This document shows positions 2,468 to 25,014 of a DNA stretch of 26,163 nt, piece by piece (position 1 is the first letter of the stretch; every line of letters begins with the position of its first letter). A program made the position numbers and the translations under genes. Source of the DNA: a virus (Duplodnaviria > Heunggongvirae > Uroviricota > Caudoviricetes); the IMG/VR virus record IMGVR_UViG_2541047960_000003; one strand, 5' to 3'. The notes beneath the pieces were generated by a model that searched no databases, was not told the DNA's origin, and saw nothing but the letters and a program-made list of their open reading frames with translations.

Positions 2468-2502
2468 GGGGGCAGTATTGCCCCCGTGCGGGAACGCTGA
2501 TA

Positions 2503-2949
2503 TTAAAGGCGTTTAAAAAGCTCAGTGGGAGTGGTGGCTGGAGTTTTCGCCATCAGACAACATTTCAATACCACATCAGCACCACACTCAATGACAATAT
2601 GCTCAATGCCGCCCCGGATGATCAGAGTGTGCGTCTTCCGGTTGTAGCTGTACTCTGCACCATCAGCAAACCGGGTTCCCCGGATATTTTTGTCACTGAA
2701 CGGTGGTTTATCGACGTCTGAATACACCGCGCCCAGAATAACACCATCCTCGCCGTTGGCATCGAGCAGCACCTCAACCTGCTCCCCCACGTCAGGGAGC
2801 CAGTAATCTTTGTTATCCTGGGTATTGCGCTGCAGCACGTTAAGCCAGTTTGTGCGCAGGTTATCGCATTCAGGCAGACGAACGCGGGCCTGAACCCTGT
2901 CGGCATCAACGGCACTGACCGTACCGACCTGACGAGTGACACCAGTCAT
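2503..2949 (-). CDS. baseplate spike/assembly protein V-like
   Basis: 148-aa ORF immediately after the D-like gene (ATGA-type overlap at 2946-2949); P2 order D-V-W. Confidence 0.55.
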   Translation of the reverse strand: MTGVTRQVGTVSAVDADRVQARVRLPECDNLRTNWLNVLQRNTQDNKDYWLPDVGEQVEVLLDANGEDGVILGAVYSDVDKPPFSDKNIRGTRFADGAEYSYNRKTHTLIIRGGIEHIVIECGADVVLKCCLMAKTPATTPTELFKRL

Positions 2950-5184: not shown

Positions 5185-8135
5185 CAGCGGTACTCCTTAC
5201 GTTGTTTCTGAGCCAGCAGACGCTCCAGCATTTTTTCCAGCTCATGCAGACTCATATTCAGGGCACCAGTCAGTCCTGCAGGCGCTGTGGTTTCCCTGCC
5301 ATTGAGGAAAAACTGAGGATTAAAGCTGACCTGGATACCACCAGACGTTCCACCGCCGGTTGCAGCTGCACCACGGCCTGAATATCCGGCAGCCAGGATT
5401 TCAGGCGAGGGGATACGGGGAACATCCGGTGTCATCTCATTTGCCAGACGTTGCCCTGGTAAAATCGATGCCCGGGTGGAGAGCGGAATAGCGGGCATGG
5501 AAGACAAACTATTGATTACGGCTCCGATCGCATTTTTAGCAGACGACATAAACCCATTGATATCGGGCAACGGCATACTGAAGCGAACACCTGAAGTGTT
5601 ATCTCGTATTTCTGGCCCCTGAATGCTCACGGGCATTCTGGGGAGCAGTTCACTGGCCATTCGCTGCCCGGCCAGAGCTGCAAGCGGAGTGGTCCGCTGC
5701 AGGCCAATGGCGGCCCCCTGCGCGATATTGTCACCAAAGCCCATAAACACGCGGCTCGGCGAATGAATGCCCAGCTTTTCGCTGAACCAGCCACTGATGC
5801 TGTCACCCATTCCGGTTACACTGGATTTGAGCGACTCCCATTTGTTTTTGATACCGTTAATCAGACCATCGACAAGATGGCCACCGAAGTCGGTAAACTT
5901 TGCCGGCAGATCAACACCAAGATATTTCAGCGCAACTGCAAAGGCTTTATAGAGCAGACCTGCCGGCGACCAGTTAATCAGCAGCTTACCAGTTCCCGCG
6001 ATACCGCCGTTAAAGGCTTCCTGAATGTCAGCCCAGCACTGTTTAAACCAGCTACTGATGCTGTCACCCATTCCGGTTACACTGGATTTGAGCGACCCCC
6101 ATTTGTTTTTGATACCGTTAATCAGACCGTCGATAAGATGGCCACCGAAGTCGGTGAACTTTGCCGGCAGAGCAACGCCGAAATATTTCAGCGCAGCCGC
6201 AAAGGCTTTATAGAGCAGGCCTGCCGGCGACCAGTTAATCAGCAACTTACCAATTCCCACAATGCCGCCGTTAAAGGCTTCCTGAATGTCTGCCCAGCGC
6301 TGTTTAAACCAGCCACTGACTGCCCCCCAGTTGCGGTAGATAAGGTAAGCTGCTGCCGCGACAGCGGTGATAACGAGACCGATGGGATTCATCATCAGCG
6401 CACGTCCAATCCAGAGAACAGCACGTCCGGCGAGCATAATTCCGCGAACCAGCCCCCCGGAGAGCACGCCACTCAGTGTTCTGGCTCCTCTGGCGACGGC
6501 GCTAAATCCGGTCACCAGCCAGCGGAGCTTACCGCCTTGCCCCAGTGCGAGCGACAGACGAAGCCAGTTGGCCCGAAGTAAAACAGCATTTTTCCAGACA
6601 CTTACAAAGGGGGAAATAAGGAGATTCAGCCCCAGTTTGAGACCAACAGTCGCTATCTTAATCGCAAGGAGCGCACTGATGAGCTTAAAAGCCCCACTGA
6701 CAAATTGCGGGTGAGTCGCTACCCAGTGTTTTGCCCCCTGAATGAGTGGAAGCAGTTCCTGAGTCAAAGAAATAAAAGATGGAGCTAATTGATCGCCCAG
6801 CGTAATTGCCAGATCGCGACTGCTGACCATAAGTGTTTTAGTGGCTTCAAGGGGAGATTTCAGCCGCTGATCATAAGCACTGGCAAGCAAATCGTTATCC
6901 GCAGCCCTGAGAGCACCGGCACGGATCTCTCGATATCTGTCCATGTTGGCCAGCATCGGGCGGATAAATGCCATGACCTGCATATCCGCGAACATATCGC
7001 CCAGACCAAAGTTTTTCGCCAGAGCCTGAAGTGCCTCATCTCTTGCCGTATCATTCTTTATTTTCATGGCTGATTTGAAGCCGGCCAGCGCTTCGGGGCT
7101 TTTGGTATTGAGGTAACGTTCTATAACACTCAACATCCCTTCAATCGGAGAGATCCCCGCAGCTTTATAACTCGCAATAGATCCCTGCAAATCAATACCC
7201 AGATCAGCAAACTGTTTCTGAGTATCGCGGGCAAAAATTTTGGTAAGAAAGTTTTTAAAATTATTGGCTGCTTCGTCGGTGGAACCTGCACCGATTTTTG
7301 CTATCTGGAGACTGGCCCCGATTTCAGCAACAGCCTCTTTTCCACTGGCAATACCCGCCATCATTGGGGCCAGGGACTGCATCCACTTGACCTGATCCGG
7401 GATTTCAAATGACCCCTGGTCACCGGCATAAGCCATAATATTCTGAACGGCACCAAAATCTCTGGCCGCACCTTTCAGGGAGTTTTGCCAGACTGCGGCC
7501 ACTTTTGCCCAGTCCTGAGCAGACGTGCGTGTTGCCGTTGCCGCGCGGGCAATATCCGGCATCAGAAAACCGATATCTGACACATTATCAATATTGTCGC
7601 TGATGAGTGAACCCACCGCCTCCTGCAGCTCATCCTGATACTGATTGTATTTAAGCGCCCAGCCTTTTATCTGTCCGGCAAGTGCATCCCGCGTTTTATT
7701 GTCATATTTTGCGGTGATCGACATATCAATCATTTTGTCCTGAAAAAACATGGACTGCTGAACGGCAGGGGAAACCGTATGATAAACAGTCTGAGCCATG
7801 CCATACGCTTCAATCCCCTGACCATACAGCGCCATGCGGTTAGCTTTCAGCGCATCACTGGTAGCGGATGCCGCTGACAGACGGCGCTGCTGGCGCTCAA
7901 TTTGCTCCATGGTGCGGCTTACCCGCAGCAGCTCGCTGTTGAGATGCTGCATCCGGGAAGAACCCAGTTGACCATAACGTTCTGTTGCACGGGTTAAAGC
8001 GTTCTGACGTTCCTGCAGGCGGCGTGAGGTATCGCTCAGGGAATCAAGCGCACGGCGGGTACCGCTCATTGCAGAACGGAATGTGCTGCCAATCATCCCG
8101 CCGATAACAACGCCGACTGAAAACTGTCCCGACAT
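5184..8135 (-). CDS. tail tape measure protein
   Basis: 983-aa ORF downstream of the tail chaperone pair; coiled-coil N-terminus, Gly/Ala-rich hydrophobic central region, internal tandem repeat; canonical position. Confidence 0.85.
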   Translation of the reverse strand: MSGQFSVGVVIGGMIGSTFRSAMSGTRRALDSLSDTSRRLQERQNALTRATERYGQLGSSRMQHLNSELLRVSRTMEQIERQQRRLSAASATSDALKANRMALYGQGIEAYGMAQTVYHTVSPAVQQSMFFQDKMIDMSITAKYDNKTRDALAGQIKGWALKYNQYQDELQEAVGSLISDNIDNVSDIGFLMPDIARAATATRTSAQDWAKVAAVWQNSLKGAARDFGAVQNIMAYAGDQGSFEIPDQVKWMQSLAPMMAGIASGKEAVAEIGASLQIAKIGAGSTDEAANNFKNFLTKIFARDTQKQFADLGIDLQGSIASYKAAGISPIEGMLSVIERYLNTKSPEALAGFKSAMKIKNDTARDEALQALAKNFGLGDMFADMQVMAFIRPMLANMDRYREIRAGALRAADNDLLASAYDQRLKSPLEATKTLMVSSRDLAITLGDQLAPSFISLTQELLPLIQGAKHWVATHPQFVSGAFKLISALLAIKIATVGLKLGLNLLISPFVSVWKNAVLLRANWLRLSLALGQGGKLRWLVTGFSAVARGARTLSGVLSGGLVRGIMLAGRAVLWIGRALMMNPIGLVITAVAAAAYLIYRNWGAVSGWFKQRWADIQEAFNGGIVGIGKLLINWSPAGLLYKAFAAALKYFGVALPAKFTDFGGHLIDGLINGIKNKWGSLKSSVTGMGDSISSWFKQCWADIQEAFNGGIAGTGKLLINWSPAGLLYKAFAVALKYLGVDLPAKFTDFGGHLVDGLINGIKNKWESLKSSVTGMGDSISGWFSEKLGIHSPSRVFMGFGDNIAQGAAIGLQRTTPLAALAGQRMASELLPRMPVSIQGPEIRDNTSGVRFSMPLPDINGFMSSAKNAIGAVINSLSSMPAIPLSTRASILPGQRLANEMTPDVPRIPSPEILAAGYSGRGAAATGGGTSGGIQVSFNPQFFLNGRETTAPAGLTGALNMSLHELEKMLERLLAQKQRKEYR
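5779..6322. repeat. in-frame tandem duplication (2 x 261 bp plus ~22 bp of a third unit) inside the tape measure gene
   Basis: Unit starts at ~5779 and ~6040 (aaccagcYactgatgctgtcacccattccggttacactggatttgagcga...), begins again at ~6301 then diverges. Encodes two ~87-aa protein repeats (SWFKQRWADIQEAFNGG... / SWFKQCWADIQEAFNGG...). Also explains the near-identical antisense ORFs 5767..5952 and 6025..6213. Confidence 0.85.
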
Positions 8136-8628: not shown

Positions 8629-8704
8629 GATTGTGCTCCTGTGTAAGTTCAGGGCAGTATGTCGGGAGAAGCGCGTGACGGATATTAAAGGAGATTAAGA
8701 AGAA

Positions 8705-14542: not shown

Positions 14543-14678
14543 TTTGCTGTCCCGCGTTATGTTGTCGGAGACAGTTTGTGAGAAATGCAGGCCCGGCGAT
14601 TTTAATCTGCTTTAGAAAACATCAGGGGAGAAGGACAGGGAAAGCAATGCGGTGAACCGGAGGCGGTTATAAAACAGA

Positions 14679-17516: not shown

Positions 17517-19111
17517 CAGAATCCCTCCAGCATACGGGCCGCCTGACGACGACGGCGTGAGCTTGCCTTCACCGGCCCTTTGTTAATTTCACGGCTGGCG
17601 AAATACGCCAGCGCCAGTGCGATGGCTGAATCCCCGTGGCGTTTACCACCGTCAGCCTTTGCTTTTGAGCGTTGCTCCGGTACGCGGGGGACACCGTTCA
17701 CCACCTGAACGGCCCGCAGGTCATCCAGTGTGTCTTCATCCTTTGGTAAGTCCACCAGGTTACCGTCTTCCAGTGCAGCTTTGACCGGAGGCATATGCTC
17801 CCGGTACCAGCCTTCGGTTGGCATCACCTGCTGAACCCGGCTGGAGCCGTAGCGCTGCATGGCGTATTCAGCCAGATAGGCACCATTACCACGGGCATCA
17901 AACGCTGCACCCAGCAGACCGGGCAGGCCATCCATCAGATACCAGGTGATTTGCTCCTGCTGTCTGAACGGCACGTTACGCAGCTCCAGTACGAATGGCA
18001 CGCGTCGTACCAGGTTCTTCTCCTGCAGCAGGGGATAGTCCACCGACAAATCACCGCTACGGCCAAAGTCGCGCCCCAGGAAAGAGCGGGCATCAGTGGG
18101 GAGTGCCTCCAGCAAGGGTTTCAGATACTCATCAAGCCAGTCCTGCGTCTCGCGGAAGCGAACCTCATCAGACAGCAGTTCATAACCTTCCTTGCAGGTC
18201 AGACGCAATACCGGCGTATCAGCGGACATGCGGGACTCTATCAGGGCACGGGACAGCCAGGCACCGCCACCGTTGGCCGGAATACAGTCAAGCTCTTCGG
18301 ATGCGCCGGCACCGTAGAATTTGTACACCGATGCCATCCAGGCCTGCTCGGATGCCTCCGACCATTCCTTCCCGGTGCGCAGACAGACGCGCCGGAACAG
18401 CCCCTCAGATACGGCTTCCCGGAAAGTGATGCGATGTATGCTGCCTCCCTGACGTCCGGCACGGATATCCCCGATAAGCGTATTGAACGGATTGTCGTCA
18501 CCGTCATGGGTGGAGATAACGCGTACCTTTCCCCCCCAGATAAGCATCGCCAGCGCCGCTTTCAGCAGTTCGTCCAGTTGCTCATGGAACGCCGCTTCGT
18601 CGATAACAATAATACCCTGACGGCCACGCAGGTTAGACGGGCGGCTGGAGAGCGCAACAATACGAAAGCCGGAGTCAGGAAATTTGATGGTGTAAGTCTT
18701 GATGTGTTTGTCGTCGTCGTCCTCTTCCCAGAATCCTTCTTCAATTTCACTGGCCGCATAGTTGAATGCCCGTGCCCACATCGCACACGCCTGAATGTAT
18801 TCGACGGTCATGTCCTGGTTATAAGCGATGTAATACACATTCATCCCGCCTGCTGGCGCAGAAGAGGCGGCGGTCAGTACGTTATCGGATGCCTCAGCCC
18901 ATGTAATACCGGTACGACGGCTCTTTTCTATCACCTTAAGCGGAGAGGTGTCTGCCACCCAGCGCTGCTGGTAAGGCAACAGAACGGGAGGGGCATCCAG
19001 CGCCGAGGTATCAGGCAAAACGGGAGCAAGGTTATTCCTCCCGTCCATGGGACTCATCCCTTCGGGGCCGCCGCCAGCGGCGTTTAAAATCACTCCGGAT
19101 GATTTTGTCAT
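17516..19111 (-). CDS. terminase large subunit (Mu gp28-like)
   Basis: 531-aa ORF preceding the portal gene; acidic EEDDDDK patch and overall size typical of a large terminase. Confidence 0.8.
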   Translation of the reverse strand: MTKSSGVILNAAGGGPEGMSPMDGRNNLAPVLPDTSALDAPPVLLPYQQRWVADTSPLKVIEKSRRTGITWAEASDNVLTAASSAPAGGMNVYYIAYNQDMTVEYIQACAMWARAFNYAASEIEEGFWEEDDDDKHIKTYTIKFPDSGFRIVALSSRPSNLRGRQGIIVIDEAAFHEQLDELLKAALAMLIWGGKVRVISTHDGDDNPFNTLIGDIRAGRQGGSIHRITFREAVSEGLFRRVCLRTGKEWSEASEQAWMASVYKFYGAGASEELDCIPANGGGAWLSRALIESRMSADTPVLRLTCKEGYELLSDEVRFRETQDWLDEYLKPLLEALPTDARSFLGRDFGRSGDLSVDYPLLQEKNLVRRVPFVLELRNVPFRQQEQITWYLMDGLPGLLGAAFDARGNGAYLAEYAMQRYGSSRVQQVMPTEGWYREHMPPVKAALEDGNLVDLPKDEDTLDDLRAVQVVNGVPRVPEQRSKAKADGGKRHGDSAIALALAYFASREINKGPVKASSRRRRQAARMLEGF

Positions 19112-19203
19112 GTGGCAATCCCCAGAATCTCGCGACGAAGCGCCTGTACTGCGTCGCTTGACAGTCCCCCCTTACGGGCAATTTTCTCGGCGTTGCTGGC
19201 TGC

Positions 19204-19653
19204 CTACTGCGCTCTGGCCCGTACTTCAGACTGGAACTTTTTGAGGTTGACGGACGCGCGGGACAGCGTAGCCACATTCTTCGCCACCTTCGACAGCAGG
19301 GCCACGCGTTCTTTAGGATCGACTTCGCCTTCTTCCGCCTCCTGCAACTGGACAATACTCTCGAACAGCTCGGTCTGAATAAGGGCTATCACAGCCTCCG
19401 AACGCGCATCCTGATCGTCTGCTGCGCCTTCGGTCAGCATGCGGGCCGCTTCTGTTGCCGCACGGATAGCACCATAGCGGCGCTCAATCTTCTGTCCATA
19501 GCGATGGATAGCGGATTTGCTGATGACGTACCCCCGCTCACGCAGCAGGGACTCCAGCTCGTTATACCCGCTGAAGCCGGATTCAGTCAGCGCCCGTTCA
19601 AGCCAGCGGCGCACGTCTTCCGGCAGCTTTTCTATTGTGCTGCGTCTGGCCAT
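19204..19653 (-). CDS. Mu gp27-like protein (putative small terminase / DNA-binding)
   Basis: 149-aa ORF upstream of the large terminase with an N-terminal HTH-like segment (SGYNELESLLRERGYVISKSAIHRYG). Confidence 0.5.
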   Translation of the reverse strand: MARRSTIEKLPEDVRRWLERALTESGFSGYNELESLLRERGYVISKSAIHRYGQKIERRYGAIRAATEAARMLTEGAADDQDARSEAVIALIQTELFESIVQLQEAEEGEVDPKERVALLSKVAKNVATLSRASVNLKKFQSEVRARAQ

Positions 19654-20937: not shown

Positions 20938-21661
20938 AACTGCTGCCTCCCCATGTGAGATATCGCGGTGCCAGTTCGCGCAGGATGCGCTGCGGATAAT
21001 GGCGGTTCTCCCGCCAGCTGGCCGCATTGCGTCCGGCATTCACCGTGGCGACATGTCCGAACCAGCGGGTGCTGTCCAGACCTTTCTGTGATGCAAGCCG
21101 CCTGTCCCGTTGTACCCAGCCCAGACCACCGTTATAGCCCGACAGTGTCATGGCCATACGCTCGCAGTCACTGGCGGCGCTGACACGCTGCCACAGCCAG
21201 CGGTCATAGCTGACCAGCGCCCGGATAGCCCATGCCGGATTAAACGGCTCACGACTGCTCAGCATCGGTATCAACTGGCTTATCCAGTCGGCAGTGGCAG
21301 GCATGAACTGCGCCAGTCCCTGAGCGCCAGCCGGCGAGATCGCATCAGGTCGCCAGCCGCTTTCCTGATGCAGTTGCGCGGCGAAATCGGCCACCGGCGC
21401 AGACAGTCCCCATTCAAGCCGGGCATTACGGATCACATCATCGCGATACTGCAGCGCAGCCTGCGGAGGTTGTGCTGCGCATGCCTGGCTGAAAAAGCCG
21501 CCACACCAGAGCAACATTGCGACAAAGAATACCCATGCCATATGAACCAGAAAGGTCCCGGCGCGGACTGACAGGCGTTCGGTTCTGATGAAGACCCGAA
21601 AGGCTTCGAAAGCCAGTTTCAGGGACATGCATACAATCCAGGTGATCTGCGGCCAGTTCAT
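20921..21661 (-). CDS. endolysin, lytic transglycosylase (SLT domain) with N-terminal hydrophobic segment
   Basis: 246-aa ORF with E-S-x-W...AQGLAQFMPATA catalytic-region pattern; N-terminal MAWVFFVAMLLWCGGFFSQACAAQ looks like a signal or SAR segment; start ATG 3 nt after the holin-like stop. Confidence 0.75.
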   Translation of the reverse strand: MNWPQITWIVCMSLKLAFEAFRVFIRTERLSVRAGTFLVHMAWVFFVAMLLWCGGFFSQACAAQPPQAALQYRDDVIRNARLEWGLSAPVADFAAQLHQESGWRPDAISPAGAQGLAQFMPATADWISQLIPMLSSREPFNPAWAIRALVSYDRWLWQRVSAASDCERMAMTLSGYNGGLGWVQRDRRLASQKGLDSTRWFGHVATVNAGRNAASWRENRHYPQRILRELAPRYLTWGGSSCVASD

Positions 21662-21663
21662 GA

Positions 21664-22014
21664 TTAAAGCCCCATCGCAACAGCCAGGCAGACCGCTGCA
21701 ACAATCAGTGCACGGCGGATTAACGCAGCAGAAAACACCAGGTGAAGGCCGGTCTGTACCGGGAAACGCCCTTCAGCCATCAGCCTGTCGTCATGTTTCA
21801 GGTACTGACCGGGACGGGCTTTGGGGAAGAGCGAACGGTCAAGCCAGTAACCCAGCACTGCTGCCAGCGTGATGAGTGCCAGCTTGTAGATCACAACAGG
21901 CAGCTGCTGTGGTGAGACCAGAGCGATGGTGCCCAGCAACAGCACTGAGGTCAGCAGCCAGCCGCTGAGGCGAGGTTTTTTAACAGGGGGAATGAATTTT
22001 TTCAGGTTTTTCAT
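21664..22014 (-). CDS. putative holin (small multi-TM membrane protein)
   Basis: ATG at 22012-22014 with GAGGAGA SD; about three hydrophobic segments; first gene of the late operon, immediately upstream of endolysin. Confidence 0.45.
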   Translation of the reverse strand: MKNLKKFIPPVKKPRLSGWLLTSVLLLGTIALVSPQQLPVVIYKLALITLAAVLGYWLDRSLFPKARPGQYLKHDDRLMAEGRFPVQTGLHLVFSAALIRRALIVAAVCLAVAMGL

Positions 22015-22144
22015 GTGTGTCTCCTCGTTTGGTGGAGACAGCATCACAAATACAGGGCGCAAAGGATTTTAAAGCGCGTTAAGAGAGCCGGGGATACGGG
22101 ATGTGCAGGATAAACGATGAATTATTCACAGAGGAGAATACGAT
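22015..22144. promoter_or_regulatory. divergent promoter region (late lysis/structural operon leftward; P-loop gene rightward)
   Basis: 130-bp non-coding gap between the first late gene start (22014) and the plus-strand gene start (22145); no specific promoter boxes confirmed. Confidence 0.3.
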
Positions 22145-22621
22145 ATGACGCACACACTGAATCCGGTCATCACTGTCACTGTGTCCGGTCCTGTGGGCAG
22201 CGGTAAAAGTTACGTACTGGCGCGGATAGAAGAGATGGTGAAACAGGAACTCGGAAACAGCGTCATTGTCGATGCTGCTGACGTGGAGAATGAGCGCCGT
22301 ATGAATGGCGAAGATCTGACGACCTGGCAGAAGCCACGGGGTGGCACAGTGATCAGGCTAGAGGAATACACGGGACAGGGCCTGTTGTCATACGGCGAGG
22401 AGCGTATCTGTCGGACGAATGAGCTGCTGGATGTTATATGCCCCACGGGCCGGCAACCCTGGATACTGCCCGATGCACTGCATGCCACCATTGCGGCACT
22501 GATGACAGTTTACGATCAGGAGCTGCTCATGAAGGAGTTACGTAAACTCACCGGTCAGCCAACAGAATGTTGTTCGTCTCCGAAGTACGGCAAACAGGAA
22601 AACGCCCCGGATAATCCTTAA
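22145..22621 (+). CDS. small P-loop (Walker A) protein, possible small kinase-fold protein
   Basis: 158-aa ORF; SD GAGGAG 8 nt before ATG; VITVTVSGPVGSGKSYV Walker A at residues 15-22, then VIVDAAD acidic motif about 20 residues later. Confidence 0.5.
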   Translation: MTHTLNPVITVTVSGPVGSGKSYVLARIEEMVKQELGNSVIVDAADVENERRMNGEDLTTWQKPRGGTVIRLEEYTGQGLLSYGEERICRTNELLDVICPTGRQPWILPDALHATIAALMTVYDQELLMKELRKLTGQPTECCSSPKYGKQENAPDNP

Positions 22622-22640
22622 GATACCTCCTGAACAGAAA

Positions 22641-22656
22641 CAGCCCTGAAGGGCTG
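22641..22656 (-). terminator. candidate intrinsic terminator ending the repressor-operon transcript
   Basis: CAGCCC-TGAA-GGGCTG hairpin 2 nt after the stop of the 196-aa gene; on minus-strand RNA it is followed by UUUCUGUU; on plus-strand RNA it is followed by A-rich sequence, so it is unidirectional. Confidence 0.4.
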
Positions 22657-22658
22657 CA

Positions 22659-23249
22659 CTAAAAAAAGAAGTGTATTATTGCCCAAACAGCTATAACGAT
22701 GATTCCCAGCCCAAGAGCCGATTCTAACTTATCTTTGGCAGTCATTTTTACTGTTGTAGCGGGCGCAGGTAAGTCTTGCTGCTGTGGATTTTCTGTTAGT
22801 TGTTTACGAGAAGAAACATCGCCCCTATTAGTTTGCTTCATGTTGATTACAGATGCGTTATGGGCATTATCAGCAGCAATTGACTGAAGTTTTACAAAAG
22901 TTTTTGAATCTGTTTTAGCCAGAAGTAACCTATTTCCCGTAAACATTGCCTTAAAAGTGATAGTTTTTTTCGTCTTGTCCGCCGCACCAAGCAAACCTCC
23001 AATGACCAACCCTGCACCACCAAAGATTAATCCACCAAGCAAACCTGCGCCTGCCGCCTTACCTATACGGCTTTCCTCTTCACTATCCGCAAGTTCAATC
23101 GATAAAAGCTCTTCTTTCAGATTTAATACAATATTTTCAGGAAAGCCTTGTTTTGGTTTTTTGGCAAACACGATGGTACCGAACCCCATGCTTGCCCACC
23201 CTTTAGGAAAACTTCCTGCGATAACCTGAATCCCTGCCATGTTCATCAC
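22659..23249 (-). CDS. glycine-zipper membrane protein of unknown function
   Basis: ~193-196-aa ORF (GTG/ATG start cluster at 23238-23249 after AAAGGTG); GxxxG-rich segment AAGAGLLGGLIFGGAGLVIGGLLGAA and C-terminal TM LGLGIIVIAVWAIIHFFF; AT-rich codon usage. Confidence 0.5.
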   Translation of the reverse strand: MMNMAGIQVIAGSFPKGWASMGFGTIVFAKKPKQGFPENIVLNLKEELLSIELADSEEESRIGKAAGAGLLGGLIFGGAGLVIGGLLGAADKTKKTITFKAMFTGNRLLLAKTDSKTFVKLQSIAADNAHNASVINMKQTNRGDVSSRKQLTENPQQQDLPAPATTVKMTAKDKLESALGLGIIVIAVWAIIHFFF

Positions 23250-23330
23250 CTTTTACATTAAAATTTCAGAACGCAGCATGATGCCGCCTTTGTCTTTTTT
23301 CTGATCCCATGGTAATTCAGCTGTTATTTT

Positions 23331-24317
23331 CTATTTAAGAATAAAACGGTATTTACTGTCAGGAGTGCTTTGCTGATCAAGTAGCAGTGAACGACATGGA
23401 GCAGTCAAAACCCGAGCATAACTACCATCAGGGCTTATGTTAATGTAACAAACCTTGCCCTTAACACTATAATTTTCGGGGACGGATGCCTTTGCTGATA
23501 CAGTAAATTTAAGGGTATGCCAGCCCGTTTTTTGCTTGTAGCTTGAAACCGAATGGAAATCATCTGAGTACTTATTTAACCCTGGAAACATGCTGCGCAG
23601 TGCGGGGATGGAATCTTCTATTATTTTATCGTTGGTTTTAATGTTAAAAACGCTGGTTTCAGTAGAAGCTACTGCTTTGGCATTTCCCCATTTACCAGCG
23701 AACACAATCATTCCCACGAAAAATATTGCTACAAGAACTAACACTCCCCCCAACACTACTACATGAGGCTTCCGGCTTCTGGTTGGTACAGTTGCGACTG
23801 ATTTTGCACCGCTTTCCGATGGAGGTGATAGAGTTTTACTCTCATCACGAATATTCAGCAGATCATCAAAATAACCAAACACAGCCTGCAACTGCTCTTT
23901 GTCTAGGCCTTTAAGATGGGTTGTACCGAAATGCTTCAGACAGTATCTGTCACGGTCAAGACGATACCCAGGGTCAGTAAGCGCCATTATTTTGCTGACC
24001 AGAAGATTACAGTCCTTCATATTCTGGATCTGTTGTGCATATCTCTGAAGGATCTCAACCGCACCATGATAATCAGCCGCAGTCATTTCATTAACTGTTT
24101 TGGTATTAAGTTTCGTGTGGATCGTCATCCATAGCTCGCGCTTACTTTCCCCCAGATCAACCAATTCATCCATCAATCTGTGTAAATCGCGTTTTTGCAG
24201 CAACGAAATTGGTTGCTGGGCCGAAGGAAGTATGTCAGCAGAATAGTTATGAATGGTAACATCACCGCTGACAACGTTACCCACATCCCCGTTAACTGTT
24301 TGCTTCTCTTTACTCAT
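23331..24317 (-). CDS. single-pass membrane protein of unknown function, translationally coupled to the repressor
   Basis: 328-aa ORF; ATG at 24315-24317 overlaps repressor stop (ATGA); ~190-aa N-terminal domain, one TM (HVVVLGGVLVLVAIFFVGMIVFAG), ~115-aa C-terminal domain. Confidence 0.55.
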   Translation of the reverse strand: MSKEKQTVNGDVGNVVSGDVTIHNYSADILPSAQQPISLLQKRDLHRLMDELVDLGESKRELWMTIHTKLNTKTVNEMTAADYHGAVEILQRYAQQIQNMKDCNLLVSKIMALTDPGYRLDRDRYCLKHFGTTHLKGLDKEQLQAVFGYFDDLLNIRDESKTLSPPSESGAKSVATVPTRSRKPHVVVLGGVLVLVAIFFVGMIVFAGKWGNAKAVASTETSVFNIKTNDKIIEDSIPALRSMFPGLNKYSDDFHSVSSYKQKTGWHTLKFTVSAKASVPENYSVKGKVCYINISPDGSYARVLTAPCRSLLLDQQSTPDSKYRFILK

Positions 24318-24775
24318 CTTCTCTTGGTATTTTTGTTCATTATTCCACCTGTTCCTATGGTTACGTTACCTTTGATAACATTCCCCAGAACATCTCCATG
24401 AATAACCTGTTCCGCCCGTTCTCTGGAGGAGCCAGTAGTCAAGGCCGACAAAACTGAACCTTTGACCTGTAATGGTGCCTGCCGGTAGTGCTGCAGTAAC
24501 TCCATTTCATCACGTGATAAAGTTATACCTGATGACTCCCCGGTAAGAATGAACTGTACATTGGCCCCAATTCTTGCAAAGGCTGCAAGTAACTCACCTC
24601 CGGGAACAGCAACCCCTCGTTCATATTTCCCCCACATTTCTCTTGAAACGCCACAAAGGGCTGCTACTTCAGCCTGCTTGAGTGATAACCGCGAACGCTC
24701 AGCTTTGAACCGCGACGCGCAAAGAGAATCAAAATTCACATAAACCTCATTGGCAATGAGAACAATAGTTCTCAT
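24314..24775 (-). CDS. XRE-family HTH transcriptional repressor (putative immunity repressor)
   Basis: 153-aa ORF with classic HTH_XRE segment (LSLKQAEVAALCGVSREMWGKYERG); divergent from the early operon across a 50-bp gap. Confidence 0.65.
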   Translation of the reverse strand: MRTIVLIANEVYVNFDSLCASRFKAERSRLSLKQAEVAALCGVSREMWGKYERGVAVPGGELLAAFARIGANVQFILTGESSGITLSRDEMELLQHYRQAPLQVKGSVLSALTTGSSRERAEQVIHGDVLGNVIKGNVTIGTGGIMNKNTKRR

Positions 24776-24825
24776 AATCTATCACATATAAAACAAACAT
24801 CATTGCATCAACAAAGGAGACAACA
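24776..24825. promoter_or_regulatory. divergent promoter/operator region between repressor and early operon
   Basis: 50-bp AT-rich gap containing TCACATATA, ATTGCA and the SD AAAGGAGA for the Ner-like gene. Confidence 0.4.
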
Positions 24826-25014
24826 ATGACTTCCGAACAAGTTAAAAATCTCTTCCGTCAGCGTGGTATCACGTTTACCCGCTGGGCCGAAGAACACGGC
24901 TACAGCCGCAATGAGGTCTATCGTGTTCTCAATGGACAGACCAAAGCTCGTTACGGCAAAGCCCATGAAATTGCCGTAAAACTGGGATTAAAACCCACGT
25001 CAAATGCGGCATAA
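24826..25014 (+). CDS. Ner-like small DNA-binding regulator
   Basis: 62-aa ORF with SD AAAGGAGA; HTH-like TRWAEEHGYSRNEVYRVLNG and C-terminal KAHEIAVKLGLKP resembling the Ner/Nlp pattern. Confidence 0.6.
   Translation: MTSEQVKNLFRQRGITFTRWAEEHGYSRNEVYRVLNGQTKARYGKAHEIAVKLGLKPTSNAA

Follow-up and report, generated by a model that had tools for sequence, protein, structure and literature searches.

The P-loop gene and its surroundings

The window analyzed here, a 26,163-nt stretch of DNA, comes from a transposable E. coli prophage of BcepMu-like (Bcepmuvirus) type. Phage PhiKM, which is classified in Bcepmuvirus, matches at 96.8%, and the prophage has Mu-type head, portal, and gp27 genes, Holin_2-3 and SLT lysis genes, and a divergent early operon comprising a ner-like gene, DUF3102, an rve transposase, and an ExeA-like gene. 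Flanked by the Mu-type portal, gp27, F, transposase, and ExeA-like genes is an open reading frame (hereafter, the P-loop ORF) whose 158-residue product is RefSeq WP_000149906.1, named 'ABC transporter ATPase' (Table 1). The product is mildly acidic (pI 5.0), and reading of its sequence identified no long hydrophobic segment or obvious signal sequence; the protein is therefore presumably cytoplasmic.

The lysis/late operon and the repressor operon are both on the minus strand (holin ATG at 22014; repressor operon from 24775 down to 22659), and the P-loop ORF is the only plus-strand gene between them. The original prediction described the gene as antisense to both flanking operons, convergent with the repressor operon, and equipped with its own strong Shine-Dalgarno sequence, and all of this is correct. 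An intrinsic-terminator-like hairpin lies between the P-loop ORF and the repressor operon and serves the latter; on the plus strand no T-tract comes after it, and it therefore does not stand out as a terminator for the P-loop gene. An Rfam search of the window found nothing.

The P-loop gene has a fixed place on the phage backbone, next to the lysis/late promoter. It adjoins the holin gene, on the opposite strand, in 24 of 31 IMG/VR loci and in E. coli, Citrobacter braakii, and Hafnia-like prophages, and its distance to the holin ATG is about 130 nt wherever the genes are called. The genes 3′ of it vary between prophages. The GC content of the gene is 0.55, like that of the late region, and falls to 0.41–0.44 from about 22600, at the 3′ end of the gene, where low-GC variable cargo starts. 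The gene had been assigned to prophage cargo; an accessory role is indeed plausible, but the backbone-like GC content and the fixed place by the late promoter set the gene apart from cargo.

Table 1. Positions of the P-loop ORF, its parts, and nearby features in the window
Feature	Position	Strand	Description
Divergent control region	22015..22144	.	130 nt, from holin ATG (22014, minus) to P-loop ORF
−10-like GATGCT	22045-22040	-	In the control region between holin gene and P-loop ORF
Late-promoter-type motif TTAA-N6-TTTAAAA	22067-22084		In the control region between holin gene and P-loop ORF
Conserved GCAGGAT	22105-22111		Candidate plus-strand promoter element, symmetric about the late-promoter-type motif
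Shine-Dalgarno AGGAG	22132..22136	+	8 nt 5′ of ATG, read directly
P-loop ORF	22145..22621	+	ATG to TAA, 158 aa; coordinates include stop codon
Predicted N-terminal mini P-loop domain	22145..22378	+	Residues 1-78; profile search, alignment, AF2
Walker A GPVGSGKS	22187..22210	+	Residues 15-22; alignment of 37 diverse members
VIVDAAD	22262..22282	+	Residues 40-46; D43 in 10/37, D/E at position 46 in 30/37
Predicted strand 3 VIRLEEY	22349..22369	+	Residues 69-75 (TVIRLEEY with T68); alternating hydrophobic residues
Invariant Glu74	22364-22366	+	Codon; candidate Walker-B-like acid
Predicted C-terminal helical module	22397..22567	+	Residues ~85-141; core ILPDALHATIAALMTVYDQELLMKELRK
Allele junction	22600..22621	+	DNA identity to 242/247-aa allele stops near 22609
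Intrinsic-terminator-like hairpin	22640..22657	-	Between P-loop ORF and repressor operon

Distribution and conservation of the gene

The P-loop ORF is a real, conserved gene of Mu-like (BcepMu-type) E. coli prophages. It is carried by 570 of 5426 complete E. coli genomes (~1 in ten), including those of ExPEC lineages such as CE10, IAI39, and ST131, and its product matches PHROG 3787 over residues 1–157 (E 2.1e-107, 359 bits). The term 'orphan' in the original prediction thus fits the position of the gene, alone on its strand, but not its ancestry. An exhaustive HMMER profile search of 1.84 billion cluster representatives yielded 73 matching representatives at E<1e-3, and stand-alone forms occur on many contigs from Yersinia, Acinetobacter, and metagenomic phages. 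We found no study of the P-loop gene in the literature on WP_000149906.1 and on BcepMu-like E. coli prophages.

About 10% of related prophages, including close relatives, lack the gene, indicating that it is dispensable. Its dN/dS relative to the 242-aa allele is 0.32 overall and 0.26 in the N-domain.

The junction at the 3′ end of the gene gives rise to alleles of 141, 158, 242, and 247 aa, and the 158-aa form is without the ~85-residue C-terminal extension of the long (242/247-aa) form. Shortened or internally deleted alleles are in circulation (141, 158, and 182 aa, the last internally deleted), together with fragments of 46–118 aa. These alleles, the splitting of one locus by a 7-nt duplication, and the presence of a pseudogenized DUF3486 gene in the CE10-type prophage could be read as signs that the P-loop gene is a decaying, functionless remnant of a larger ATPase gene and that its conservation reflects recent prophage spread. 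We consider this improbable. The dN/dS values argue against it, as does an N-domain whose conservation extends, at identities as low as about 30%, to unrelated phages and includes invariant G, K, and E residues; 158-aa alleles at 83–87% identity retain the same reading frame and the same C-terminal end, PDNP; and no larger parent ATPase was found among the 1.84 billion representatives.

A predicted mini P-loop domain and shuffled C-terminal modules

The only widely conserved part of the protein is, as judged from alignments, a phage-specific domain of ~75 residues and of predicted nucleotide-binding type. In the exhaustive HMMER search, conservation is restricted to residues ~1–75, corresponding to profile positions 1–75 in most of the 73 hits. 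The N-domain occurs alone, as phage proteins of 71–90 aa, and also fused to unrelated C-terminal parts. Two apparent homologues, P0037 and P0080, were rejected on reading as repeat-driven false positives, being large repetitive proteins.

The predicted order of elements in the N-domain is strand 8–14, P-loop, helix 21–39, helix 47–54, and strand 69–75. A further short strand near residues 42–45 appears only in the low-confidence full-length AF2 model, and residues 43–46 have pLDDT <50 in the domain model. The Walker A motif predicted originally, on a strand-loop-helix, is real and strongly conserved: among 37 diverse family members, G15 is kept in 36, G20 and K21 in all 37, and S/T at position 22 in 36. 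Three family members have GKN in place of GKS/T, so Mg2+ coordination is not universally kept.

Outside the Walker A motif, the positions kept are E74 (37/37), I28 (36/37), and E50 (32/37). The acidic VIVDAAD segment to which the original prediction drew attention is present, but its Asp is not the conserved acid of the family (D43 in 10/37 vs E74 in 37/37). Glu74 lies at the end of predicted strand 3, stand-alone homologues stop 0–3 residues past it, and it is a candidate Walker-B-like acid. The pattern of predicted strand 69–75 is amphipathic (h-x-h-x-E), not the hhhhD/E of a Walker B motif.

The predicted C-terminal helical module reappears at the C-terminal end of mosaic relatives, among them proteins without a P-loop domain (P0066 and P0068), and it matches no known family. 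C-terminal modules have no match in Pfam at E <= 10, and a homologue search with a 161-aa module protein as query returned one hit. A locus of Hafnia sp. (L014) at first appeared to be a stable split into N-domain (88 aa) and middle modules (161 aa), an interpretation that we rejected: a 7-nt tandem duplication frameshifts a 246-aa fused gene, and the fourth module, a 76-aa ORF, is the only one with a separate gene at that locus. Family members tend to be slightly acidic (median net charge, −2), which favors a small-molecule ligand over nucleic acid.

Structure models

AF2 modeling of the N-domain alone yielded a strand-P-loop-helix ... strand arrangement at moderate confidence (pLDDT 72.7, pTM 0.59). 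A full-length model from 11 close homologues was poor (pLDDT 49), and the domain model was used for fold searches instead. Both models place the Walker A motif after strand 8–14 and at the opening of a helix that starts at residue 21 (and extends to 36/39). The Walker A consensus GxxxxGK[ST] is therefore present in a predicted strand-loop-helix context, but the three-layer alpha/beta/alpha core of a P-loop NTPase, with its sheet of at least five strands, was not found in the models, which contain two to three strands. To our knowledge, every characterized P-loop NTPase has a sheet of five or more strands. With a sheet of only two to three strands, binding of nucleotide by a monomer is doubtful.

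A Foldseek search of the domain model against the PDB returned no significant match, which counts against the reading that we prefer below. The top hits, 4-oxalocrotonate tautomerases, were discarded as merely small beta-alpha-beta proteins. The best structural and profile matches are all to the Walker-A core of P-loop NTPases, including the designed minimal proteins 6c2u and 9jix.

Kinase and transporter assignments

The original prediction took the Walker A motif and the VIVDAAD segment together as the mark of a small P-loop nucleotide or polynucleotide kinase, possibly a toxin or counter-defence enzyme. Small P-loop kinases of the kinase-GTPase class (YGR205w/1odf, dTMP kinase, APS kinase, and thymidine kinase) are indeed among the closest known systems. 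However, no kinase model reaches its cutoff (Zeta_toxin, 12.6 bits vs 22.3; guanylate kinase, 12.9 vs 263; uridine kinase, 12.5 vs 180; PHROG thymidylate-kinase family, E 0.079), and the matches span only about 25–55 residues of the Walker-A core. The conserved unit, which occurs alone at 71 aa, has no lid or substrate-binding domain, is followed by no conserved sequence past residue ~75, and is too small to hold a kinase core, a lid, and a substrate domain. The low conservation of D43 and, for a polynucleotide substrate, the acidity of the protein are likewise unfavorable. A toxin would also sit uneasily, although the argument is weak, with the circulation of the 182-aa internally deleted and other truncated alleles and with contexts that, where examined, contain no evident antitoxin-like partner gene. 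We regard a kinase as very unlikely.

The suggestion of a toxin or counter-defence role is left where it was by searches of defence models. No PADLOC-DB model matches significantly (the best, SngB, at E 0.007, covers residues 13–56 and involves the Walker A motif only), a result that weighs neither way; NCBIfam models gave Walker-A noise only.

Family members carry the source names 'ABC transporter ATPase' and 'KAP family NTPase', and residues 2–57 resemble, below threshold, the start of the ABC_tran, TAP, GlnQ, and PhnC models. In particular, the segment after the Walker A motif, 'G-x-h-h-h-D-x-x-D-h', looks like the start of the beta-subdomain of an ABC nucleotide-binding domain. Even so, the score against ABC_tran (PF00005) is 13.6 bits vs a cutoff of 25 (17.5–19.4 bits for relatives), and the alignments end at about position 52 of the 137 in the profile; the Q-loop, LSGGQ signature, Walker B-D-loop, and H-loop are all absent from the 158-aa sequence on direct reading; and no permease or binding-protein gene is located nearby in this prophage context. 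The match to KAP_NTPase (PF07693) is 14.6 bits vs 20 and covers residues 4–43 only, and the protein has no hydrophobic segments for transmembrane helices. Truncated copies of one sequence family bear different names, which suggests that the names stem from weak automatic matches and not from functional evidence. As far as sequence can decide, membership in the ABC or KAP families is refuted, and we give a transporter-type or KAP-type ATPase almost no chance of being correct.

The divergent control region

The P-loop ORF and the holin gene share a control region that contains a late-promoter-type motif. TTAA-N6-TTTAAAATC is found 5′ of four minus-strand operon starts, with 12 matches vs 1.2 expected. 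A promoter scan detected no plus-strand sigma-70 consensus promoter for the P-loop gene. A single conserved heptamer, GCAGGAT, conserved at one site only, and its symmetric placement about the late-promoter-type motif suggest a putative divergent promoter on the plus strand. The fixed place of the gene 130 nt from the holin ATG, beside the late-promoter-type motif, suggests that it may be transcribed from this promoter late in the lytic cycle.

The same location would suit a function internal to the phage, such as modulating lysis timing, packaging, or late transcription. The place is fixed in divergent BcepMu-like prophages, the late-promoter-type motif is shared, and the GC content is backbone-like; moreover, the homologue in Yersinia comes after the lysis cassette, and another homologue (P0087) carries a fused PG_binding_1 domain of the sort present in endolysins. 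We nevertheless judge such a late function unlikely. The gene is missing from about 10% of related prophages that have intact lysis and late genes, and also from KS10; the protein shows neither a DNA-binding nor a membrane feature; in other phages, the homologues are unlinked to lysis genes; and the PG_binding fusion is a single 2.9-kb contig. Stand-alone homologues are located in early-left, post-lysis, and pre-terminase operons of different phages, and timing and role may therefore not be uniform across the family.

In layout, the locus resembles that of the Pseudomonas transposable phage Fc02, in which superinfection-exclusion genes lie beside the repressor gene and are expressed in the lysogen (PMC9936078). 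In both, a Mu-like transposable phage carries accessory genes of small size close to its immunity region. The exclusion genes of Fc02, however, are reported apparently to share the repressor transcript, whereas the P-loop ORF lies on the other strand, directly next to the late promoter, a position that does not imply expression in the lysogen.

Discussion

Our preferred reading, to which we assign a probability of about 0.45, is that the product of the P-loop gene is a small switch or adaptor that binds nucleotide and plays an accessory role, neither a kinase nor a transporter ATPase. We infer ligand binding, oligomerization, expression timing, and biological role of the protein along the following lines. 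Residues 1–78 would form a phage-specific mini P-loop domain with two to three strands and two helices, possibly in the order beta-alpha-beta-alpha-beta, that binds a nucleotide or other phosphate ligand. Lys21 and Ser22 of the Walker A motif would hold the phosphates, and Glu74, where strand 3 ends, would hold Mg2+ or water in place in the manner of a Walker B acid. Because the sheet is so small, the mini-domain probably has to self-associate or dock on a partner, and the C-terminal helical modules, shuffled among relatives, would supply partner specificity. Transcription would be late lytic, from the divergent promoter. We would expect a dispensable, rapidly evolving role that belongs either to conflict (phage-host or phage-phage) or to the late lytic program.

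A different use of the same domain is conceivable, one without nucleotide hydrolysis or switching, namely as a phosphate-ligand sponge or as a decoy. In one version, it would sequester a signaling nucleotide; in another, it would imitate the Walker-A half of an ATPase of the host or of a defence system and poison the assembly of that ATPase. The variable C-terminal modules would target different victims. The family is phage-restricted and fast-evolving (N-domain 32–57% identical where the holin is 64–74% identical), its C-terminal modules are extensively shuffled, and it occupies accessory slots in many phage types, including phage-like contigs of 90–141 kb. The protein is also small, and small size is typical of phage-encoded binders and inhibitors. 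We nonetheless hold this proposal to be doubtful: an invariant Glu74 next to a P-loop is more typical of Mg2+ or water chemistry than of passive binding, searches revealed no similarity to a known sponge or anti-defence family, and no conserved defence or anti-defence gene was seen in the neighborhood.

Returning to the switch or adaptor reading, the closest family in databases is PHROG 3787, a profile without functional annotation, so that membership says nothing on mechanism. Residues 1–157 of the protein align to profile positions 1–157 of 242, and distant stand-alone and fused relatives match the same profile only over about positions 1–76. The profile models the 242-aa long allele, and the 158-aa protein has no counterpart of its last ~85 positions.

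The closest designed systems are the P-loop prototypes of the Tawfik laboratory (PDB 6c2u) and the de novo ATPase PL2x4_2 (PDB 9jix), which are of comparable size, consist of a bare beta-(P-loop)-alpha element, and rank among the best sequence matches in the PDB. Short beta-(P-loop)-alpha polypeptides of this kind bind NTPs when oligomeric, and for the prototypes, binding of NTPs, polyphosphate, and ssDNA requires the oligomeric state (bioRxiv 10.1101/2020.07.30.228619). Our working model would have the phage mini-domain behave likewise. The designed proteins are engineered and basic; the phage family is natural, selected, and acidic, and has E50, W61, and the invariant E74 as further conserved positions. 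By analogy with these designs, one may speculate, with low confidence, that the ~75-residue module is by itself a complete natural mini P-loop protein, smaller than any other natural Walker-type unit that binds or hydrolyzes nucleotides and active only as an oligomer, and that phages use it during infection, alone or fused to exchangeable targeting modules, either against a nucleotide signal, which it would sequester or consume, or against a host ATPase, which it would poison.

The name 'ABC transporter ATPase' is misleading, and correcting it clears hundreds of genomes of a false transporter or kinase call. If the ~75-residue unit binds or hydrolyzes nucleotides, it would correspond, in nature, to the engineered minimal P-loop proteins with which the origin of NTPases is modeled, and it would be a new small building block of phage accessory proteins. 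In BcepMu-like prophages, the P-loop gene also forms the left boundary, constant in position, of a cargo hotspot, beside a recognizable late-promoter motif; this boundary is useful for annotating and engineering BcepMu-like elements.

A lone plus-strand gene in a BcepMu-like prophage

Judged by its surrounding genes, the element is a BcepMu-like transposable prophage: one flank of the P-loop gene carries Mu-type portal (DUF935/Portal_Mu), head-morphogenesis (Mu F-type), virion-morphogenesis, and DUF3486 (Mu gp27-like) genes, and the other carries ner-like HTH, IclR-type HTH, DUF3102, rve transposase, ExeA-like ATPase, and Gam genes. E. coli O7:K1 CE10 carries positions 21000-25000 at 100% identity, and across the holin-to-ORF stretch the sequenced phage PhiKM (assigned to Bcepmuvirus) matches at 96.8%. 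The DUF3486 gene is labelled a pseudogene in CE10 by RefSeq; because it carries an internal stop, this prophage copy may have a packaging defect.

The P-loop ORF is the sole plus-strand gene between the minus-strand late/lysis and repressor operons. The original prediction described its coordinates, Shine-Dalgarno sequence, two motifs, lone placement, and convergence with the repressor operon accurately. It also called the gene an orphan, which is incorrect: the ORF is matched in 570 of 5426 complete E. coli genomes (569 of 5426 at a coverage of at least 80%), its product is named 'ABC transporter ATPase' in RefSeq, and the protein matches PHROG 3787 (function unknown; E 2e-107).

Features of the P-loop gene and its surroundings
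Feature	Position	Strand	Description
P-loop ORF	22145-22621	+	Intact, ATG to TAA, 158 aa
Shine-Dalgarno	22132-22136	+	AGGAG, 8 nt 5′ of ORF ATG
Walker A	residues 15-22 of ORF	+	GPVGSGKS
Acidic motif	residues 40-46 of ORF	+	VIVDAAD
Late/lysis operon	ATG 22014 (holin)	-	Holin (Pfam Holin_2-3), then SLT transglycosylase and further genes
Repressor operon	24775 down to 22659	-	HTH repressor (153 aa), then 328-aa and 196-aa proteins
328-aa gene	23331-24317	-	GC 0.41-0.44
196-aa gene	22659-23249	-	GC 0.41-0.44
Hairpin	22640-22657		Between convergent P-loop gene and repressor operon; terminator score on minus strand only
DUF3486 gene	19108-19653	-	Internal stop; ORF ends after 149 codons
TTAA-N6-TTTAA(A/T)ATC sites	22067-22084, 14600-14617, 8683-8698, 2501-2519		Shared motif
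GCAGGAT	22105-22111		Conserved heptamer

The T-tract of the hairpin lies on the minus strand only, so transcription of the P-loop gene might continue past it into the 196-aa gene, in antisense. The low-GC 328-aa and 196-aa genes are oriented like the repressor and are probably on its transcript. At its N-terminus the 328-aa protein resembles Flk, a flagellar regulator (NCBIfam NF007987, E 2.9e-12, under cutoff), and it also contains a transmembrane segment; the 196-aa protein combines a glycine-zipper-like segment with a transmembrane segment at its C-terminus. Both may be expressed in the lysogen as membrane proteins.

The N-terminal segment is a minimal P-loop domain

A profile search over all 1.84 billion cluster representatives returned 73 matches at E < 1e-3, nearly all of which, the closest E. 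coli relatives excepted, cover profile positions 1-75 only. This ~75-residue module is found as stand-alone 71-90-aa proteins, at the N-terminus of 125-364-aa proteins with unrelated or mosaic C-terminal parts, and, in one case, behind a PG_binding_1 domain. In this last protein (P0087, metagenomic, L015 1919-2398), the PG_binding_1 domain (E 4.7e-15) is N-terminal and the mini P-loop domain occupies the place of the catalytic domain in endolysins; the fusion could be an assembly or frameshift artefact, since it is known from a single 2.9-kb contig only.

All stand-alone homologues are in phage contexts. In a Yersinia prophage the gene lies between the lysis cassette and the HNH and terminase genes; in Acinetobacter prophages it is flanked by an HNH gene and the small terminase region; others occupy an early-left operon beside an N-like antiterminator and Rad52, or lie on 90-141 kb phage-like contigs. 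No conserved partner gene is evident in the contexts examined.

In an alignment of 37 diverse members, G20, K21, and E74 are invariant; G15, I28, and S/T22 are retained in 36/37 each, E50 in 32/37, and W61 in 27/37. Of the proposed pairing of a Walker A with an acidic VIVDAAD motif, the Walker A is conserved and VIVDAAD is not: D43 is present in only 10 of 37 members. The acid that is conserved is Glu74, located where the strand TVIRLEEY ends, and the shortest stand-alone homologues terminate 0-3 residues past it.

The protein reaches the cutoff of no Pfam, NCBIfam, or PADLOC model (KAP_NTPase, 14.6 bits versus 20). The proposal of a small P-loop kinase is not supported by the scores for Zeta_toxin (12.6 versus 22.3 bits) and kinase equivalogs (about 13 versus 180-263 bits). 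The ABC ATPase identity implied by the RefSeq name was rejected: ABC_tran scores 13.6 bits versus 25, and a Q-loop, an LSGGQ signature, and an H-loop are all missing from the sequence. Family members carry discordant source names (ABC transporter ATPase, KAP NTPase, uridine kinase, Ni-binding GTPase), the pattern expected of Walker-A-only matches.

AF2 prediction was poor for the full-length protein with a shallow alignment (pLDDT 49) and better for the N-domain, residues 1-78, with the 37-sequence alignment (pLDDT 72.7, pTM 0.59). The N-domain model has the order strand 8-14, P-loop, helix 21-39, helix 47-54, and strand 69-75. Foldseek of this model gave no significant match in the PDB and one match in BFVD, a 72-aa viral family member. 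Profile-versus-PDB matches were limited to the Walker-A segment of ABC proteins, kinases, UreG, and PilT, and included the designed minimal P-loop proteins 6c2u and 9jix. Because of this layout and the restriction of matches to the Walker-A segment, the predicted domain resembles only the opening beta-(P-loop)-alpha-...-beta part of a P-loop NTPase rather than a complete one. Under the refuting condition set by the original prediction itself, the kinase fold falls; the P-loop element survives. The protein is neither a kinase nor an ABC ATPase; the finding is real and more specific than "a small kinase", a new minimal variant in the P-loop world so far known solely as an unannotated PHROG.

Shuffled C-terminal modules and the edge of a cargo hotspot

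Residues ~85-141 (ILPDALHATIAALMTVYDQELLMKELRK) reappear C-terminally in mosaic relatives from Salmonella, Citrobacter, and Hafnia, and also in proteins without the P-loop domain. The long E. coli allele has one further module; a Hafnia-like prophage encodes it separately as a 76-aa ORF, and in other proteins it is joined directly to the N-domain. No known-family matches were found for the C-terminal modules. An apparent separation of the N-domain from the remaining modules in locus L014 was dropped as evidence: a 7-nt tandem duplication (CAGATGA CAGATGA, 7254-7268) shifts the frame and breaks a 246-aa homologue into 88- and 161-aa ORFs, exactly at the domain boundary, with an in-frame ATG retained by the second ORF.

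Close homologues are 141, 158, 242, or 247 aa long, with an internally deleted 182-aa form. Comparison with the 242-aa allele gives a dN/dS of 0.32 overall and of 0.26 for the N-terminal half, and 158-aa alleles at 83-87% identity retain the same C-terminal end; the 158-aa form is thus a stable allele and no recent accident. In the 182-aa alleles (P0028, P0030), residues 52-124, with strand 3 and Glu74 among them, are lost through two internal deletions. Short repeats lie at the deletion ends (ER...ER, ELL...ELL) and hint at slippage, with some copies decaying.

The P-loop gene adjoins the holin on the opposite strand in all BcepMu-like loci examined, including E. coli, Citrobacter braakii, and a Hafnia-like prophage, where identity is only 64-74% for the holin and 32-57% for the N-domain. 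The same arrangement is present in 24 of 31 IMG/VR loci. Wherever genes were called, about 130 nt separate the gene from the holin ATG. Downstream genes vary (Dam methylase, small ORFs, or membrane proteins), and in some related prophages other genes replace the P-loop gene. GC content is late-region-like in the ORF (0.55) and drops to 0.41-0.44 from about 22600, coinciding with the end of identity to the long allele near 22609. The fixed holin-side position, variable downstream genes, and GC content identify the P-loop gene as phage backbone and the fixed edge of a cargo hotspot, with length variants produced by cargo exchange at its 3′ end. The gene is dispensable, since the lysis region is present in 636 genomes and the gene in 570. 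Across six related loci (L010, L011, L012, L020, L022, L023), the holin-repressor interval (~22600-24300 in the window) is a hotspot containing a DNA adenine methylase, DUF2441, a nucleoid-associated protein, a Mor-family protein, or various small ORFs, and repressor alleles also vary.

A putative divergent late promoter

The 130-nt control region holds TTAA-N6-TTTAAAATC, and a similar motif lies 5′ of three further minus-strand operon starts, near 14608, 8690, and 2510; matches at up to 3 mismatches number 12, versus 1.2 expected. All four can be aligned, and a -10-like (C/G)AT(A/G)CTG follows each about 22 nt downstream. Mu late promoters are an activator-dependent set, and by analogy the four sites look like activator-dependent late promoters. 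No sigma-70 consensus promoter was found for the plus strand. Divergent prophages share the heptamer GCAGGAT, which is conserved at the lysis promoter alone; its distance from the motif centre on the plus side equals that of the -10-like element on the minus side. This conservation and mirror placement make a divergent, co-activated promoter for the P-loop gene possible.

A backbone-anchored accessory gene

The analysis shows a real, selected, backbone-anchored accessory gene whose product combines a phage-specific mini P-loop domain with shuffled helical modules. With its invariant Walker A Lys, the adjoining Ser/Thr, and the invariant strand-end Glu, the mini-domain would bind Mg2+-nucleotide or a related phosphate ligand; the family is mildly acidic, which favours a small ligand over nucleic acid. 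The predicted sheet is tiny, so the domain would self-associate or dock on a partner. Engineered beta-(P-loop)-alpha polypeptides, to which we liken this proposed oligomeric binding, bind NTPs by self-association (bioRxiv 10.1101/2020.07.30.228619).

We assign the overall explanation a probability of roughly 0.45. Its architecture and synteny parts are close to secure, nucleotide binding is an even proposition, and the biological role is tentative. Candidate roles are late lytic helper, nucleotide sponge, decoy of a host ATPase, and exclusion factor. The fast divergence of the gene, its shuffled modules, and its dispensability lean towards an accessory function of the conflict type.
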